A stretch of DNA of 64,000 nt from Candidatus Brocadiaceae bacterium (GTDB lineage: Bacteria > Planctomycetota > Brocadiia > SM23-32), in assembly GCA_003551305.1 (NCBI GenBank), contig PUMJ01000050.1:12073-76072 (forward strand), in the 5' to 3' direction. This document shows, piece after piece, positions 2,751-8,495 of this stretch. A program made the translations under genes and the position numbers. The notes below the pieces were generated by a model. It worked only from the letters and a program-made list of their open reading frames with translations, was not told the DNA's origin and searched no databases. The number at the start of each line of letters is the position of its first letter. The stretch's first letter is position 1.

Positions 2751-2771
2751 CAAAAGCCCCCTTGCGGGGGC
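2751..2771 (-). terminator. Rho-independent terminator for the minus-strand ABC/ArsR operon
   Basis: On the minus strand, GCCCCC-GCAA-GGGGGC hairpin followed by TTTTG, about 80 nt downstream of the permease stop. Confidence 0.5.
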
Positions 2772-2853
2772 TTCCACAGCCGAGGCTTCGGCCGTGAGCT
2801 CAGCCGAACCGGGCGGCTGTGCCACGGTGGCCTCCTGGCGTCGGTCGGCCGCC

Positions 2854-3627
2854 CTACAGACCCCGGGAGCGCCACATGCGGTGGAAGAAACAGGCGCCCA
2901 GGAACATCACCACGGTGAATCCCACCAGGGCCACCAGCGCCACCCAGACCGGGAAGTAGGGCTCCTGCCCGAAACCCGTCCTGATGAGGTCCGCCGCGTA
3001 GGACAGGGGCGAAATGGGCGATATCCACTGCGCCCAACTCGGCATCTCCGCTATGGGCAGGAAGACGCCGCTGACGAACAGCAGCGGCAGGCGCACCAGG
3101 TTCGAAAGCAGCATGATGTTGGACGGGCTGCTGGCCGGCGGCGACGCCAGAAGCACCCCGAGCGTGGCGAAGCTGAGCGCCCCGAGCACGACGCCGCAGA
3201 TCAGAAGCGGCAGGCTCGTGATGACCGAGTCCGTAAGCGCCAGCCCCAGCACCACGGGCACCACCGAGAGGCACGCCCCGAAGAGCAGCCCGCTGGTGAT
3301 GTCGCCCAGCAGGATGGCGCGCAAAGACAGGGGCGAGGAGATGAGCCGCTCGTAGGTCCGGGCGTTCCGCTCCCACGGGGTCACCAGCGGCCCGACGGCG
3401 CTGGCGGTGAACCACAGCGCCATCGCCACCATGCCCGGCACGATGGCGTCCGCCGCGATGGGCCGGCCCATCAGGAAGGTGAGGAAAAAGAAAACGGGGA
3501 ACAGCACCCCGAAGATCAACACCGGGGGCTTCAGGTAGTAGAGCATCGAGTTCTTCTTGGCGATGACGTAGACGCCGTGGGCCTGCCGGCGCCAGGTCCG
3601 GATTCCTTCGCTCACGGTGTCACTCAT
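2854..3627 (-). CDS. ABC-2 family transporter permease
   Basis: Six hydrophobic helices and ABC-2 type permease architecture. Overlaps the upstream ATPase gene by 8 nt. Confidence 0.75.
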   Translation of the reverse strand: MSDTVSEGIRTWRRQAHGVYVIAKKNSMLYYLKPPVLIFGVLFPVFFFLTFLMGRPIAADAIVPGMVAMALWFTASAVGPLVTPWERNARTYERLISSPLSLRAILLGDITSGLLFGACLSVVPVVLGLALTDSVITSLPLLICGVVLGALSFATLGVLLASPPASSPSNIMLLSNLVRLPLLFVSGVFLPIAEMPSWAQWISPISPLSYAADLIRTGFGQEPYFPVWVALVALVGFTVVMFLGACFFHRMWRSRGL

Positions 3628-4564
3628 TGCGGTCCTCCTCGATCGGCTGTCCTGTCAGTTCCAGGAACACGTCTTCCAGGCTCGGCTTGCAGGTGGCTAT
3701 CTCCGCGATGTCAACTCCGCGGCGCTCGGCGAGCCTGACCACCTCCGTGGCGACCCGGCCGGGCTGCTCCGAGTAGAGGCGGAAGCCGCCGGCCCGGCTC
3801 AGGCGCTTCACCCCCGCCAGCGCGGCAAGCTCATCCTCCGGCGGGAGGCCGTCGGTGAAGCTGACCTGCACGTACTGGCTCGACTTCATCGCGTCGCGGA
3901 GCTGGTCCGGGGTGTCTATGGCGACGATGCGGCCCTTGTTGATGATGGCCACCCGGTCGCAGACCTCCTCGGCCTCGGCCATGTTGTGCGTGGTGAGGAA
4001 GACGGTCAGGCCCTCCCGGTTCATGTCGCGCACGATGTTGCGTATCAGGCGGGCGCTGTGCACGTCGAGGCCGCTGGTCGGCTCGTCCAGGAAGAGTATC
4101 TCCGGCCCGCTCACCAGGGCCGAGCAGAGCATCAGGCGCTGGCGCAGGCCCTTGGAGAGGGCGCGGGCTTTCTGCCCTTTGCGGTCGCCCAGGCCGAGAT
4201 TCTTGAGCAGGCGCTCGCCTTCCTCCTCCCGGCGGGCGCGCGGCACGCCGTGCAACTCCGCCATGAGCATCACGTTGCGCCAGACGCTCAGGTCCAGGTA
4301 AACGTTCGCCTCTTCCGGCACGATGCCCAGGTGTGCGCGGGCGTTGAGCGGGTCCCTGCGGATGTCGTGTCCCTGGATGGTCGCCGTGCCCCCGGTGGGG
4401 TCTATGACGCCCGTGAGCATGCGGACGGTCGTCGTCTTGCCCGCCCCGTTGGGGCCGAGGAAGCCGAAGACCTCGCCTTTGTTGACTTCGAACTCGACCC
4501 GGTCCACGGCGGTCAGTTCCCCGAACCGCCGCGTCAGGCCGCGGACCTCAATGCAGGAGGTCAT
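3620..4564 (-). CDS. ABC transporter ATP-binding protein
   Basis: Walker A GPNGAGKTT, signature LSKGLRQRL, Walker B LFLDEPTSGLD. Confidence 0.9.
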   Translation of the reverse strand: MTSCIEVRGLTRRFGELTAVDRVEFEVNKGEVFGFLGPNGAGKTTTVRMLTGVIDPTGGTATIQGHDIRRDPLNARAHLGIVPEEANVYLDLSVWRNVMLMAELHGVPRARREEEGERLLKNLGLGDRKGQKARALSKGLRQRLMLCSALVSGPEILFLDEPTSGLDVHSARLIRNIVRDMNREGLTVFLTTHNMAEAEEVCDRVAIINKGRIVAIDTPDQLRDAMKSSQYVQVSFTDGLPPEDELAALAGVKRLSRAGGFRLYSEQPGRVATEVVRLAERRGVDIAEIATCKPSLEDVFLELTGQPIEEDRNE

Positions 4565-5217
4565 GTCTGTTGTCTCTCCTTGTCTTTCTCAAAGATGAGC
4601 CACATGCCGAGCCCCGTGTCGGGGTCGTCTTCGGGCAGGGCCCCCTCGCCGACCACCTGGACGCGCTCCAGGCCGGCCTGGCGGGCCCAGCGGCGGAACG
4701 TCTCCGGCTTGCGGACCTCCTCGAAGGCGCGGACCGCCTCAGGACCTTTCTTGCGCACGCTCTGGCGGCGACGGCGGATGAACTCCCGCCGCGCCCACAG
4801 GGGATAGGTTTTGCCCAGCCCCCCGCCGAGCATGGCTTTGCCGCCGGGACGCAGCGCGCGGTGGACCTCTCGCACCCCGGCCGGCGGATCGTCCCAGAAG
4901 TAGATGGAGCCGCGGCTGACGACCAGGTCGGCGCAGCCGCGGGCGAGCGGAAGCGACTCCGCTCGCCCCACGACCGGCACCATTCGTCCCTGCAGGCCGC
5001 GCTCAGCGGCCGTCGCCAGCGCCCGCTGCAGGGCCTCTACGTCGGGGTCCAGCAGGACCAGAACGCCGTCTGTGCGCTCGGCCAGCGCGAAACCCAGCGG
5101 GCCTTCGCCGCAGCCAAGGTCAACCCAGACGCCCTGTTGCGGGCTGCACATCTGCATGACATCATGGACGACACACCGGTAGTAGTCCGGCAGGTCGTCG
5201 GCCTGTTGAGCCGGCAT
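4561..5217 (-). CDS. Class I SAM-dependent methyltransferase (small; possibly ArsM-like)
   Basis: Motif I VDLGCGEG, Rossmann-like MTase fold, several Cys residues before motif I. Its 3' end overlaps the ATPase start by 4 nt. Confidence 0.7.
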   Translation of the reverse strand: MPAQQADDLPDYYRCVVHDVMQMCSPQQGVWVDLGCGEGPLGFALAERTDGVLVLLDPDVEALQRALATAAERGLQGRMVPVVGRAESLPLARGCADLVVSRGSIYFWDDPPAGVREVHRALRPGGKAMLGGGLGKTYPLWARREFIRRRRQSVRKKGPEAVRAFEEVRKPETFRRWARQAGLERVQVVGEGALPEDDPDTGLGMWLIFEKDKERQQT

Positions 5218-5247
5218 GTGGCGTCACCCGAAGCAGTTATCGGCGGA

Positions 5248-5658
5248 TCACACGCAGGGGTGGTCCGCCCCGTCGCCGTGGCATTCCCGGACCTGCTCGG
5301 GGGAGCACTCGGCGGGCTTGCCCTCCAGCTTCTCGGGGTTCTCGCAGTCCCCGAGTATCTCGTCGGCCTCGTCACAGGTGGGCCGCTCCTCGCAGGCCAG
5401 GCATTCAGCCGGTGTGCAATCGGCGGCGTTTTCGACGCAGGGGTGGCCCTGAACGTCGCCGTGGCACTCCCGGATCTGCTCCGGCGTGCAGTCCTCCGGC
5501 TTGCCCTTCAGCTTGTCCGGCTGTTCACAGACGGCAGTTCCGACGCAGGGGTGGTCCTGAACGTCACCGTGGCACTCCCGGATCTGCTCCGGCGTGCAGT
5601 CCTGCGGCTTGCCCTTCAGCTTGTCCGGTTGCCGGCATCCTTCATGTCCGGTACACAT
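5248..5658 (-). CDS. Cys/His-rich tandem-repeat protein (3 units of ~36 aa, each C-x12-C-x7-C-H-G-D-x3-H-P-C); putative metal or metalloid binding
   Basis: Start MCTGHEG is preceded by GGAGGAGG. The repeats are visible at both DNA and protein level. The 5' end overlaps the arsR stop. Confidence 0.6.
   Translation of the reverse strand: MCTGHEGCRQPDKLKGKPQDCTPEQIRECHGDVQDHPCVGTAVCEQPDKLKGKPEDCTPEQIRECHGDVQGHPCVENAADCTPAECLACEERPTCDEADEILGDCENPEKLEGKPAECSPEQVRECHGDGADHPCV
5433..5640 (-). repeat. Intragenic ~108-bp tandem repeat (2 near-identical units, plus a third diverged unit at ~5280-5400)
   Basis: Unit 5433-5540 versus 5541-5640: >90% identical, in-frame, 36 codons each. Confidence 0.8.
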
Positions 5659-5954
5659 GACTCCTCCTCCTTTTCGGCCGGGGGCGTGAGCACGTGGGTG
5701 ATCACGCGCCGGCACTCCTCAAGTCTCTCGCGGTTCACACGATAGTGCGCGAAATTGCCCTGTTTTTCGCGTTCAACCAGTCCGGCGTCGCGCAGTATGC
5801 GCAGGTGCTGGCTGACGGCGGCGGACGTCATGTCCAGCCGGGCCGCCAGCGCCCCGACGCACAGGACGCGTTCCTCCAGCAACTGCACGATCTGAACGCG
5901 TGCGGCGACGCCGAAAAGCTTGAACAGCCGCGCGGCCTCTTCCGGGTCAATCAT
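5616..5954 (-). CDS. ArsR/SmtB family metal(loid)-responsive transcriptional repressor
   Basis: Winged-HTH ArsR signature ...LCVGALAARL...AAVSQHLRILRDAGLV. Strong RBS AAAGGAGGTG before the ATG. Confidence 0.85.
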   Translation of the reverse strand: MIDPEEAARLFKLFGVAARVQIVQLLEERVLCVGALAARLDMTSAAVSQHLRILRDAGLVEREKQGNFAHYRVNRERLEECRRVITHVLTPPAEKEEESCVPDMKDAGNRTS

Positions 5955-5959
5955 CGCGC

Positions 5960-6010
5960 ACCTCCTTTAAGCGCTTGCGTATATGCTAACATACTTAAAG
6001 TCCCTGTCAA
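5960..6010 (-). promoter_or_regulatory. Putative arsR operon promoter with overlapping inverted repeat (candidate ArsR operator)
   Basis: AT-rich stretch with a TTGACA -35 (minus strand; plus-strand tgtcaa at 6005-6010). Inverted repeat TTAAG-N22-CTTAA at 5967-5998, immediately upstream of the arsR RBS. Confidence 0.4.
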
Positions 6011-6372: not shown

Positions 6373-6400
6373 TTGACAGGTGCGCGGCCGGGTCTATAAT
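6373..6400 (+). promoter_or_regulatory. Consensus sigma70-type promoter upstream of thrS
   Basis: TTGACA (6373-6378), 16-bp spacer, TATAAT (6395-6400). Lies about 160 nt upstream of the thrS ATG. Confidence 0.55.
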
Positions 6401-6563: not shown

Positions 6564-8495
6564 ATGAACATTGCGCTCACATTGCCTGACGGCAGCGTCA
6601 TCAAGAGACCCGCCGGCACCACCCCGGCCCAGGTGGCCGCCTCCATCGGCCCCGGGCTGGCGCGCGACGCGCTGGCCGCCCGCGTGGACGGCGCGGCCGT
6701 GGACCTGGACGTGCCCCTGGAGCAGGACGCCGAACTGGCCATCATCACCATAGACAGCCCCGAGGGGCTGGAACTCATGCGCCACAGCGTCAGCCACATT
6801 ATGGCCTGCGCGGTGGGCCGCCTGTTCGACGGCGTCAAGTTCGGCATCGGCCCGGCCATCGAGAACGGTTTCTACTACGATTTCGACGTGGACGGCGCCA
6901 TCAGCGCGGACGACCTGGAGCGCATCGAGGAGGAGATGGCGCGCATCGTCGCCGAGGAGATCCCCTTCGAGCGCGTGGAGATGAACATCGAGGAAGCCCG
7001 CGAGCTGATGCGCCGCAAAGACCAGGTCTATAAGCTCGAGCTGCTGGAGGAGATCGAAGACCACGTCCTCTCCCTCTACCGCACCGAGGGCTTCATTGAC
7101 CTGTGCCGCGGCCCGCACGTGCCGCAGGCGGGCAAGGTCGGCGCCTTCCGGCTGCTGAACGTGGCCGGCGCCTACTGGCGCGGCGATTCCGCCCGGCCCC
7201 AGATGCAGCGCATCTACGGCACAGCCTTCCCGACCGAGAAAGAACTGGAGGAGCACCTGGAGCGCCTGCGCAAGGCCGAGGAGCGCGACCACCGCCGCCT
7301 GGGCCAGGAGCTGGACCTGTTCAGCTTCGATGAGGAGATAGGGCAGGGGCTCGTGCTGTGGCACCCGCGGGGGGAGCGCCTTCGCCAGGTCATCGAGGAC
7401 TACTGGCGCCGGCTCCACGCCGAGCGCGGCTACGAGTTCGTGCGCACCCCGCACATCGCCTCCGAGAAAGTCTTCCGGCGCAGCGGCCACATACCGAAGT
7501 ACGAGGACATGATGTACGCGCCGCTGGTCATTGACGAGGAGCGCTACCGGGTCAAGCCGATGAACTGCCCGGCGCACATCAAGATATTCCAGACCCACAC
7601 CCGCTCCTACCGCGACCTGCCGATCCGCTACGCCGAGCTGGGCACCGTCTACCGCTACGAGCTGAGCGGCGCGCTGCACGGGACGGTGCGGGTGCGGGGC
7701 TTCACCCAGGACGACGCGCACATCTTCTGCACCCCCGAGCAGCTTGTCTCCGAGGTCGAGGACCTGCTGGAACTGGTCGAGGAGATGATGGGGGCCTTCG
7801 GCTACGAATACTCCGTCTATCTGGCCACCCGGCCGGAAGTCTCGCTCGAGACGGCCGGCGATGAGGAGTGGGAACGGGCCACCGAGTCCCTGCGCCGGGC
7901 GCTGGAGGAGAAGGGCGTCGCCTACGAGGTGGACGAGGGCGGCGGCGCCTTCTACGCGCCCAAGATAGACTGCAAGCTGCACGACGCCCTGGGCCGGGAG
8001 TGGCAGGGGCCGACCATCCAGGTGGACCTGAACCTGCCCAAGCGCTTCGAGGTGGTTTACGTCGGGGAGGACGGCCGGGAGCACGAGTGCATCATCGTGC
8101 ACCGCGCCATCCTGGGATCGCTGGAGCGCTTCGTCGGCGGGCTCATCGAGCACTTCGGCGGCTGGTTCCCCGTGTGGCTGGCGCCGGAGCAGGTGCGGGT
8201 GCTGTCCATCACCGACGAGCACGCCGATTACGCCCGCCGGGTGCAGCAGCGGCTGCGGGCGGTCGGGGTGCGCGCCGCCGTGGACGCACGCAACGAGACC
8301 ATGGGCTACAAGGTCCGCGCCGGCACCGTGGACAAGGTGCCCTACCTGCTGATCGTCGGCGACCGCGAGGTGGAGAACGGCACCGTCAGCGTCCGCAGCC
8401 ACGAGCAGGGGGACGAAGGGCCGGCGCCGCTGGACGAGTTCCTCGACCGGATAGGCCGGGAGATAGCGGAAAAGCGCCTGCCGGACGACTTCTGA
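6564..8495 (+). CDS. thrS: Threonine--tRNA ligase
   Basis: N-terminal TGS domain (MNIALTLPDGS...), second additional domain, class II catalytic core and anticodon-binding domain; 643 aa. Confidence 0.95.
   Translation: MNIALTLPDGSVIKRPAGTTPAQVAASIGPGLARDALAARVDGAAVDLDVPLEQDAELAIITIDSPEGLELMRHSVSHIMACAVGRLFDGVKFGIGPAIENGFYYDFDVDGAISADDLERIEEEMARIVAEEIPFERVEMNIEEARELMRRKDQVYKLELLEEIEDHVLSLYRTEGFIDLCRGPHVPQAGKVGAFRLLNVAGAYWRGDSARPQMQRIYGTAFPTEKELEEHLERLRKAEERDHRRLGQELDLFSFDEEIGQGLVLWHPRGERLRQVIEDYWRRLHAERGYEFVRTPHIASEKVFRRSGHIPKYEDMMYAPLVIDEERYRVKPMNCPAHIKIFQTHTRSYRDLPIRYAELGTVYRYELSGALHGTVRVRGFTQDDAHIFCTPEQLVSEVEDLLELVEEMMGAFGYEYSVYLATRPEVSLETAGDEEWERATESLRRALEEKGVAYEVDEGGGAFYAPKIDCKLHDALGREWQGPTIQVDLNLPKRFEVVYVGEDGREHECIIVHRAILGSLERFVGGLIEHFGGWFPVWLAPEQVRVLSITDEHADYARRVQQRLRAVGVRAAVDARNETMGYKVRAGTVDKVPYLLIVGDREVENGTVSVRSHEQGDEGPAPLDEFLDRIGREIAEKRLPDDF

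Follow-up and report, generated by a model that had tools for sequence, protein, structure and literature searches.

Which compound is sensed and expelled by an operon that couples an ArsR-family repressor to a small cysteine- and histidine-rich protein, a methyltransferase and an ATP-binding cassette (ABC) exporter? The question was raised by a stretch of 64,000 nucleotides (nt) of Candidatus Brocadiaceae bacterium (GenBank assembly GCA_003551305.1, contig PUMJ01000050.1, positions 12,073 to 76,072), the whole of which is termed the window here and in which all coordinates of the operon are given; the operon occupies its minus strand from position 6010 to 2752. Among bacterial sensors of metals, metalloids and persulfide, none have been studied as thoroughly as the ArsR/SmtB repressors, whose sensing sites are classed by position in the core fold. 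A preliminary description of the window had proposed that the operon serves to sense, sequester, methylate and export a thiophilic metal or metalloid. The analysis presented here favors, at a probability of roughly 0.55, an arrangement in which ArsR and the Cys/His protein, the latter built of Cys4His2 repeats, form a two-part sensor that heads a stress-response operon and controls the expression of a methyltransferase and an ABC-2 pump. The logic of sensing, modification and export was retained as the best reading; the notions of a passive sink and of methylation as a core step were given up.

All five minus-strand open reading frames (ORFs) of the preliminary description were present at their positions, and their assignment to a single ArsR-headed operon was borne out by gene order and strand, which are kept in many metagenome-assembled genomes (MAGs). 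The operon opens with arsR (5954-5616, 112 amino acids, aa), followed by the gene of the Cys/His repeat protein (5658-5248, 136 aa), a gene for a class I S-adenosylmethionine (SAM) methyltransferase (MTase; 5217-4561, 218 aa), an ABC ATPase gene (4564-3620, 314 aa) and an ABC-2 permease gene (3627-2854, 257 aa). As described before, the MTase stop and the ATPase start share the sequence ATGA, a 4-nt overlap, and the ATPase and permease genes overlap by the 8 nt ATGAGTGA; the repeat and MTase genes are separated by a 30-nt gap with no clear Shine-Dalgarno (SD) sequence.

The Cys/His protein was found to contain 17 Cys and 7 His residues (18% Cys plus His), organized as three 31-residue Cys4His2 units (residues 8-38, 44-74 and 105-135) plus a linker with five Cys. 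The unit reads C-x2-P-[DE]-K-L-[KE]-G-K-P-x-[DE]-C-[TS]-P-E-Q-[IV]-R-E-C-H-G-D-x3-H-P-C, and its ligand-type residues (C, C, C-H, H and C in each repeat) were invariant or near-invariant across relatives. No Pfam or NCBIfam family was matched at E<=0.01, no relative was detected among PDB sequences with the repeat profile at E<=10, and neither the domain nor the operon was found described in the literature, including by full-text search of the motif strings. The metallothionein (SmtA/BmtA) profile did not recognize the protein, and the repeat spacing, C-x12-C-x7-CH-x5-H-x-C, differs from the Cys9His2-type Zn4 cluster motif of SmtA/BmtA. A four-Cys site has been described for the ArsR-like regulator of hgcAB; that site is a different one, located inside the ArsR core. 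The earlier label of metallothionein-like was thus replaced by that of a new repeat, with no Pfam, NCBIfam or PDB match and fused to the C-terminus of ArsR in relatives.

A search of 5.8 billion proteins recovered 350 relatives of the repeat protein in two forms, with two repeats making up standalone proteins of about 75-85 aa and one or two repeats placed at the C-terminus of ArsR-fused proteins of 155-200 aa. By exhaustive profile search of 1.84 billion cluster representatives, 348 clusters with the repeat were obtained, most of them mini-proteins of 41-90 aa; the sole other Pfam domain on the longer representative hits was the ArsR helix-turn-helix. Of the protein hits listed, about 40% carry the fusion to ArsR; among the 66 genome loci with an adjacent ArsR hit it was seen in 9. 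The fused proteins retain an 'MC' ahead of the first repeat as well as the conserved linker Cys. A plasmid collection gave no match to the repeat protein. Because the repeat was found beside or fused to ArsR and on no other domain, it is read as a ligand-sensing partner of ArsR; to judge from these sequence relationships, the repeat protein looks like part of the sensor and not only a sink.

Most relatives carry two repeats, and the three repeats and Cys-rich linker of the window gene recur in one relative, P0001. Repeats 1 and 2 of the window gene (DNA positions 5424-5523 and 5532-5631) are 93% identical over 100 nt, which suggests a recent internal duplication or gene conversion; repeat 3 (5241-5340) shows 76% DNA identity to the reference copy. 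The one elaboration seen other than ArsR was in P0383 (124 aa), which has a very His/Cys-rich N-terminus (MCGNRKSVCHDHHGHHRVNHCCCK...GCHHHGHYTTHEYHCECH) followed by a single repeat. AlphaFold2 modeling of the window protein from a 60-sequence alignment gave a mean predicted local distance difference test (pLDDT) score of 56.6 with only the PEQIRECH helices defined, and in the fused relative P0064 the winged helix-turn-helix scored above 90 and the repeats below 55. Such low scores for the repeats would fit, without showing it, a domain that folds only around its ligand.

Gene neighborhoods were compared in a genome scan (one genome per species, searched with the repeat profile, plus contig look-ups), in which 80 of 507 matching loci were examined, and in a metagenome set, in which 80 of more than 550 loci were examined; the window proteins served as tblastn probes for the synteny counts. 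The repeat loci were all in MAGs, of Planctomycetota (Phycisphaerae and Brocadiia), Lentisphaeria, Kiritimatiellia, Syntrophomonadaceae, Anaerolineales, Desulfobacterales, Acetothermia, WOR-3, TA06 and WS1. Many of these loci presumably stem, as we take the isolate names to mean, from soda-lake, hypersaline, Zodletone, Guaymas and estuarine sediments. The locus nearest to the window, in a Candidatus Brocadiia MAG (L015), encodes ArsR and ABC proteins of 85% and 81% identity, respectively; the five genes of the window recur in the same order at L001, and many other loci keep this order with inserted genes. Gene order and strand were kept in loci of many different MAGs, far beyond chance.

ArsR was adjacent or fused to the repeat in 63 of the 76 loci with upstream sequence. 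When at least 2.5 kb of downstream sequence was required, 58 loci were left, and in 41 of these an ABC ATPase gene, usually with a permease gene, followed the repeat gene on the same strand; both MTase and pump were present in 25 loci, the pump alone in 16, the MTase alone in none, and neither in 17. The fused ArsR-repeat genes P0064, P0105, P0110 and P0087 have the ABC-2 pump directly downstream; for three fused single-repeat proteins, an ABC ATPase and then an ABC-2 permease come directly after. Similarly, in a metagenome sample of the single-repeat fused subfamily, the ABC-2 pump came directly after the fused gene in 29 of 41 loci and the MTase in none. As judged by synteny, the conserved core is composed of ArsR, the repeat and the ABC-2 exporter. 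Two further gene types were noted at single loci: an MtaA/CmuA-like URO-D gene lies between MTase and pump at L002 (6969-8057) and L003 (5677-6765), with a TIGR01463 score of 67 bits that is below cut-off, and a BtuCD/FecCD-type ABC system lies directly after the repeat gene at L033 (4869-6667). A corrinoid or heme link was set aside, as the URO-D gene and the BtuCD-like importer were each found in one locus only (L003 is a duplicate of L002).

The ArsR protein of the window was identified with confidence, as had been proposed, by HTH_5 (PF01022; E=1.8e-15, 57 bits against a cut-off of 22) and by NF033788 (84 against 55). It has a single Cys in helix alpha-3, C32 (in LCVGAL), an SQHL recognition helix, and two further Cys, C81 and C100, in its tail. 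In 67 ArsR orthologues, C32, S48, Q49 and H50 were conserved in 100%, C81 in 6% and a tail Cys in 78%. The canonical alpha-3 site for As(III) or Cd (ELCVCDL, with two or three Cys) is absent, since the window protein reads VLCVGAL, and the position of the second Cys of the CXC motif is Gly or Asn throughout the 67 orthologues. By inspection of residues 70-95 (HYRVNRERLEECRRVITHVL), no alpha-5 site (D-x-H ... H-x2-E) was evident. As a single ArsR Cys cannot form a sensing site alone, the repeat module is proposed as the source of further ligands.

These features bear directly on a literal version of the preliminary description, by which ArsR alone senses arsenite or a thiophilic cation, the Cys/His protein acts as a sink in the manner of a metallothionein, an ArsM-like enzyme methylates the metalloid, and the pump exports the methylated product. 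The share of Cys plus His in the repeat protein (18%), its co-transcription with an ArsR repressor, as for smtA under SmtB, and the added His/Cys-rich stretch of P0383 would all suit a sink. However, the ArsR here has neither a CXC alpha-3 site nor an evident alpha-5 site, no metallothionein family was matched, and a pure sink would give little reason for the repeat to be fused to ArsR in many lineages. The MTase also fails the ArsM tests (25.5 against 263 bits, with no conserved set of Cys) and is missing from most loci, and inspection of genes at 162 loci, which were not queried systematically for these families, brought neither cation-efflux nor ArsB/Acr3 genes to notice. This literal version is considered unlikely.

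The control region agrees with an autoregulated ArsR operon. A promoter with an inverted repeat had been described upstream of arsR, and both were recovered: a sigma-70-type promoter at 6010-5983 on the minus strand is composed of TTGACA (6010-6005), a 16-nt spacer and a TG-extended TAGCAT (5988-5983), and it is abutted at its -10 element by an inverted repeat at 5983-5966, TATACG-CAAGCG-CTTAAA, which covers the likely transcription start. The promoter has 10 of 12 consensus matches, and the 4.1-kb region contained two promoter-like hits compared to 0.1 expected from shuffled sequence. In related loci, TTGACA followed by a TAG(T/C)AT -10 element recurs 5' of arsR, and the inverted repeat T[AT]AG-N6-CT[AT]A was found exact and directly after the -10 element in the arsR upstream regions of 31 of 64 loci (shuffled sequence gave 0.8 on average and 3 at most, and control windows gave 0 of 63), with a consensus of TTAGTATATTAGCnnnnrCTAAA. 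The window copy has one mismatch to the family motif. We infer that ArsR binds this putative operator. An imperfect inverted repeat at an autoregulated promoter is characteristic of ArsR/SmtB operators, and by analogy with their mode of action a repeat positioned over the transcription start would fit an autorepressor.

The arsR gene, which ends at TGA 5618-5616, was found to share its last 43 nt with the repeat gene, and the latter is in the -1 frame. An overlap had been described before, and it stands; it is not a mere stop-on-start contact, as the start of the repeat gene is most plausibly ATG 5658, 5 nt after the strong SD AAGGAGGAGGAG. For comparison, the ribosome-binding site (RBS) of arsR, AAAGGAGG, is placed 7 nt 5' of its ATG. 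Overlaps of 43, 46, 49 or 52 nt were present in 36 of the 57 split loci, and the repeat gene was always in the -1 frame; the arsR stop is a TGA that falls within CTGAAG or CTGACG, the conserved Leu-Lys or Leu-Thr codons of the repeat motif. Translated in the arsR frame, the ATG-TGY with which the repeat gene starts yields a Cys, and 78% of the aligned ArsR sequences owe their tail Cys to it. Programmed -1 ribosomal frameshifting would yield an ArsR-repeat fusion in the split loci as well, and could be imagined from the maintenance of the -1 overlap in these 36 loci, from the in-frame fusions elsewhere that keep the 'MC' of the former start, and from an SD-like AAGGAG within the overlap region. 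Yet no conserved X XXY YYZ slippery heptamer was found in the window or its relatives, at several loci the -1 frame is closed by a stop one to eight codons ahead of the ATG and so offers little space for a shift, the length of the overlap has a trivial cause in an arsR frame that stays open until the TGA in the repeat motif, and the SD serves as nothing more than the RBS of the repeat gene. Frameshifting is accordingly held to be highly improbable.

The third gene encodes a small class I SAM methyltransferase, as had been concluded, with generic Pfam matches to Methyltransf_11 and Methyltransf_25 (E about 1e-16). Its best 120 relatives are all at least 52% identical and about 183-268 aa in length. 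Alignment of 28 members revealed conservation of LPDYY, C24, motif I DLGxGxG (D33, G35, G37 and G39), D57, S101-R-G-S104 and F107-W108 (SRGSxxFW), G131-G-G-L-G135, Y138-P139 and W141, and the C-terminal part of the family is marked by the signature GGGLGxxYPxWARxEFIRRR. The nearest solved structure is the uncharacterised 3DLC (E=1.2e-20), and the best NCBIfam match, to the DVU_1556 family, reached 40 bits against a cut-off of 155. A match to a housekeeping family such as UbiE/MenG, with synteny unrelated to metals, had been named as an outcome that would speak against the proposal, and it was not supported: TIGR01934 scored 24.8 bits against 158 and the PRK00216 models 24 against 216-351, PF01209 (27 bits, cut-off 20.1) covered the generic SAM-binding core only, and the gene is syntenic with ArsR and an ABC-2 pump in 25 loci. 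The profile comparison with TehB (PF03848) and TPMT (PF05724) suggested earlier gave no match to either in a Pfam scan at E<=0.01.

The possibility of an ArsM-like methylase, raised together with these families, was abandoned. The ArsM model PRK11873 gave 25.5 bits against a cut-off of 263 and its selenoprotein variants 22-30 against 510-575. ArsM enzymes bind As(III) through three or four conserved Cys, two of them C-terminal to motif I; by contrast, the only near-invariant Cys in the 28 members of the present family is C24, N-terminal to motif I, with C15, C36 and C95 not conserved and no Cys past residue 95. By sequence comparison, the MTase thus belongs to an uncharacterised family. Its gene came directly after the repeat gene, or after a gene for a DsrE-like protein, in 25 of 58 loci, and in this distribution the MTase is an accessory module of one branch and not part of the core. 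Of the methylation step formerly proposed, the presence of an MTase in the operon therefore stands, but not its place in the core, since it occurs in 25 of 58 split-set loci and in none of 41 of the fused subfamily.

An ABC-2 exporter had been recognized in the last two genes, and this was confirmed. The ATPase matched ABC_tran (E=1.6e-30), TIGR01188 (DrrA; 316.4 against 312.45) and PF13732 (DrrA1-3_C; 31.9 against 27.4), and the permease, a six-helix ABC-2 protein, matched PF01061 (E=1.4e-20, 74.2 bits against 26.9) and PF12698 (3e-17). The pair is thus DrrAB-type at the level of a DrrA-subfamily ATPase with an ABC2_membrane permease, and below DrrB (TIGR01247, 62 against 223 bits) and NodJ (49 against 207) at the level of permease subfamily. 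Orthologues in related loci had 63-81% identity for the ATPase, in the same position, and 60-80% for the permease; sequence search of the PDB found no relative of the permease.

Given this pump, the operon might instead be unrelated to metals and sulfur and encode a drug, lipid or natural-product exporter of DrrAB type with a tailoring or resistance MTase, controlled by a generic winged-helix repressor and with the Cys/His domain only a structural zinc module. In keeping with this are the ATPase score above the DrrA subfamily cut-off, the multidrug models that best match the associated resistance-nodulation-division (RND) pumps, the occurrence of MacB- and MdlB-type pumps, and the PDB relatives of the MTase beyond 3DLC, which are natural-product MTases (e.g., MitM and YtkW, with weak E-values). 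We consider such an exporter very unlikely, as no biosynthetic genes were nearby in any locus examined, the accompanying genes also include those of the anion carriers ChrA, TauE and MOT1 and of DsrE-like proteins, and the invariant alpha-3 Cys of ArsR is left unexplained by a purely structural Zn module. A secreted Cys-rich peptide of the kind of a ribosomally synthesized and post-translationally modified peptide, with tailoring MTase and ABC export, was also considered but rejected, since ArsR fusions occur and neither a leader nor modifying enzymes were noticed.

What the sensor may respond to was approached through the genes that accompany it, which are termed cargo here and were counted over 162 loci, with identities by Pfam or NCBIfam. 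The counts were DsrE-like 20, ChrA 15, cupin-like 14, TauE 11, MOT1 11, RND 9, membrane fusion protein (MFP) 7 and ArsP_1-like 4. Where the ABC-2 pump was absent, the repeat gene was followed by other transporters, namely ChrA, TauE/SafE, MFS_MOT1 or split ArsP_1-like permeases, and by MFP with RND, MFP with MacB-type, two MdlB-type ABC exporters or one BtuCD-like importer. The split ArsP_1-like permeases are accompanied by a cupin-like protein. ArsP_1-like permeases and a Thioredoxin_3 gene adjoin the cassette in a few loci (L086, L140 and L168), and at L086 the ArsP_1-like set comes with a second ArsR, a further putative permease and the Thioredoxin_3 gene. In addition, TauE/SafE and then MFS_MOT1 (molybdate-transporter-like) lie downstream of ArsR-repeat genes at L079, L122 and L157, a MOT1 match lies upstream on the opposite strand at L073, and ChrA follows a small cupin-like protein at L098 and L099.

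No P1B-ATPase, cation diffusion facilitator (CDF), ArsB or Acr3 was noticed among the inspected genes at the 162 loci, for which no systematic query was made. Since the cargo consists of anion carriers, multidrug-resistance-like pumps and DsrE-like proteins and cation pumps were not seen, efflux of Zn-, Cd- or Cu-type cations is unlikely; Cd and Zn, both named in the preliminary description as possible exported species, are disfavored by cargo with ChrA, TauE, MOT1, ArsP_1-like, multidrug-like RND, MacB and DsrE-like proteins. A link to heavy-metal RND pumps (CzcA/CusA) was likewise rejected, as the neighboring RND proteins scored better with multidrug models (both below cut-off). The cargo spectrum, together with the anoxic and apparently sulfidic habitats, argues for an anionic or neutral soft ligand over a free divalent cation, and the ligand is most likely a metalloid or chalcogen (As, Sb, Se, Te or thio-oxyanions) or sulfane sulfur. 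The conserved histidines of the repeat favor metal coordination, possibly by a structural Zn with reactive thiolates.

The most frequent cargo, the DsrE/DsrF-like protein (106 aa, PF02635 E=4e-8), has a CGAC motif. Its gene was directly downstream of the repeat gene in 15 of 20 loci, including positions between the repeat gene and the MTase or ABC ATPase gene (L022 1288-1626, L028 4763-5083 and L048 204-596), and was divergent upstream of fused ArsR-repeat genes in 5 of 20 (divergent copies at L093-L095, L126, L136 and L089). These neighbors hint at sulfur or selenium transfer chemistry, and they bring in the main rival to a two-part ligand sensor, a reactive-sulfur or redox switch. By this account, Zn-thiolate or free-thiol repeats are persulfidated, bridged or oxidized by electrophiles, polysulfide or sulfane sulfur and ArsR is released, upon which the cargo disposes of sulfur species in strict anaerobes that are unable to use persulfide dioxygenase (compare BigR/SqrR and RsrA, an anti-sigma factor that contains zinc). 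The two arrangements of DsrE-like genes in the 20 loci agree with this, as does the TauE/SafE that adjoins the cassette in 11, and among ArsR-family persulfide sensors there is precedent for an operon with TauE-like genes (BigR). The loci are, moreover, largely from what we take, by isolate name, to be sulfidic sediments of soda lakes, hypersaline sites, Zodletone and Guaymas. The BigR model, however, gave only 40 bits against a cut-off of 155 for the window ArsR (NF040642) and the TsoR model 35 against 115, and the only invariant Cys is in alpha-3, unlike the Cys pair of BigR/SqrR in alpha-2 and alpha-5. Conserved His and the rigid C-H...H-x-C spacing suggest metal coordination, cargo such as ChrA, MOT1, ArsP_1-like and RND is untypical of sulfur detoxification, and no sulfurtransferase (rhodanese) or sulfide:quinone oxidoreductase was noticed in the loci. 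The sulfur switch is thus regarded as doubtful, and a ligand-responsive sensor formed by ArsR and the repeat protein is preferred.

The preference for a sensor cassette is based on the pattern of fused and split genes, on ArsR as the exclusive partner, on invariant residues of ligand type, on the conserved operator, and on the placement ahead of exporters. We infer the following from these features with respect to DNA binding at the operator, interaction of ArsR and the repeat, ligand identity, methylation and export of the ligand. In the absence of ligand, an ArsR dimer would occupy the T[AT]AG-N6-CT[AT]A repeat that abuts the -10 element and keep its own operon off. The Cys and His residues of the repeats would then bind or react with a thiophilic species, probably together with the alpha-3 Cys of ArsR, and ArsR would leave the DNA; this step may be likened to the N-terminal arm that completes the alpha-3N site of CadC and SmtB, or to CopZ handing Cu(I) to CopY. 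Derepression would supply more repeat protein as buffer or carrier, along with the SAM methyltransferase and the DrrAB-like ABC-2 pump. The pump would export the species or a derivative of it, with prior methylation by the MTase in the window and in about 40% of split-type loci.

A broader form of this proposal, which we put forward only tentatively, is that the repeat is a new sensory or carrier domain that acts with ArsR in cis or in trans and is portable with it before many exporters of anaerobic sediment bacteria, and that the present operon is a 'methylate and pump' version for a chalcogen or metalloid. The species concerned would be sulfane sulfur, Se, Te or thio-arsenic/antimony, handled by a new MTase family and an ABC-2 exporter; this conjunction as a whole is possible but clearly less probable than the two-part sensor itself.

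Several observations weigh against the two-part sensor. Repeat genes also occur with no detectable ArsR neighbor, and at L016, L022 and L030 the repeat gene is directly 3' of an RND gene; similarly, RND matches were found about 0.5 kb upstream of the repeat gene at L008, L011 and L014. At L016 (389-10632), genes for an extracytoplasmic function sigma factor, a zf-HC2 anti-sigma factor, Metal_resist (PF13801), TolC, MFP and RND are followed by repeat, MTase and ABC-2 genes, and no ArsR was detectable nearby. The repeat may thus act apart from ArsR, perhaps in chaperoning pumps, and its gene can serve pumps that answer to another regulator. The diversity of the cargo could mean that a general condition is sensed, such as thiol or redox stress. 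The MTase has no diagnostic similarity to any MTase with an established metalloid or chalcogen substrate, 23 aligned permeases share no invariant Cys or His, and to our knowledge ABC-2 pumps are not known as metal or metalloid exporters. The counts of loci include related MAGs and are not phylogenetically independent, and the structure models of the repeats are of too low confidence to bear on the presumed ligand binding or the presumed contact between ArsR and the repeat.

Comparison with known systems places the operon among ArsR-controlled detoxification and efflux operons, a known kind; what sets it apart is an undescribed repeat domain, proposed to be sensory, and an uncharacterised MTase family. 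With SmtB-SmtA it shares an ArsR/SmtB repressor, an operator at the repressor's own promoter and a small cytosolic Cys/His-rich protein under its control. By contrast, the genes here are co-directional and overlapping instead of divergent, pump and MTase are co-transcribed, ArsR has neither alpha-5 nor CXC alpha-3 sites, and the repeat protein is unrelated in sequence to SmtA/BmtA and often fused to the repressor. The alpha-3N sites of CadC and SmtB combine alpha-3 cysteines with ligands from an appended flexible Cys-rich segment, as the composite site proposed here would, but the segment in this case is a C-terminal or separate 31-residue Cys4His2 repeat and alpha-3 provides one Cys. In copYZAB of Enterococcus hirae, the order is also that of repressor, small soft-ligand-binding protein and exporters, and the small protein could hand its ligand to both; the components differ, with ArsR in place of CopY, a Cys4His2 repeat in place of the ferredoxin-like CopZ and an ABC-2 pump in place of P-type ATPases, and there is no evidence for copper at the window operon.

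The logic to 'methylate and expel' by a small SAM MTase and an exporter is shared with ArsR-ArsM-ArsP ars operons, which methylate arsenite and expel organoarsenicals, and with TehAB, a tellurite MTase with its membrane carrier. Here, however, the MTase fails the ArsM tests, matches neither TehB nor TPMT and is dispensable in most loci, and export is left to an ABC-2 pump. BigR and SqrR, which act in sulfide and sulfane-sulfur stress, are likewise ArsR-family repressors that use Cys and may have TauE-like carriers in their operons; their Cys positions differ, and they lack conserved His and the repeat domain. The exporter resembles DrrAB/NodIJ in its DrrA-subfamily ATPase with DrrA1-3_C and its ABC-2 permease, but the permease falls well short of the cut-offs for DrrB and NodJ and the context includes no antibiotic or Nod-factor biosynthesis.

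If confirmed, the placement of ligand-type residues in a separate, undescribed repeat domain, possibly on a distinct polypeptide, would be a new design of specificity in the ArsR/SmtB family. Hundreds of loci carry the cassette; they belong to phyla dominant in anoxic, saline sediments and are so far restricted to uncultured anaerobes. The cycling of As, Se, Mo and sulfur in such sediments and their volatile methylated products are geochemically important; if a chalcogen or metalloid is indeed the substrate of MTase and pump, these would represent an unrecognized route of biomethylation in anaerobes and a new set of metagenomic marker genes. Should ordinary zinc prove to be the ligand, or the role of the module be structural only, what remains is a new domain family on a common regulator.

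At the distal end of the operon, a GC-rich hairpin of 10 bp (2775-2752, minus strand; GGAAGCCCCC-GCAA-GGGGGCUUUU) lies 79 nt past the permease stop and is a likely transcription terminator. The region 2740-2830 folds at -51.8 kcal/mol (z = -3.9, with none of 200 shuffles as stable). A clean hairpin-T terminator had been described here; the stable hairpin was confirmed, but the U run is short and partly in the stem. A consensus terminator scan of the region did not call the hairpin, as the U run is only four bases long and lies partly within the stem. A second terminator-like hairpin (3495-3511, minus strand), followed by TTTTCTTTTT, is located within the permease coding region at the FPVFFFLTF stretch and is probably coincidental to this Phe-rich membrane segment.

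The flanks are unrelated to the operon. Downstream and convergent with it on the plus strand are the gene of an N6_N4 DNA methylase (545-1516) and, overlapping it, one for a protein with MTaX1 and HNH_2 domains (1503-2495); the GC content of this pair (545-2495) is 53-60% compared to 66-70% in the operon, and the pair is probably an acquired restriction-modification-like module. Upstream of arsR and divergent from it is thrS (6564-8495, plus strand). A perfect promoter, TTGACA-16-TATAAT with 12 of 12 matches, was found at 6373-6400, 164 nt ahead of thrS and divergent from the arsR promoter.

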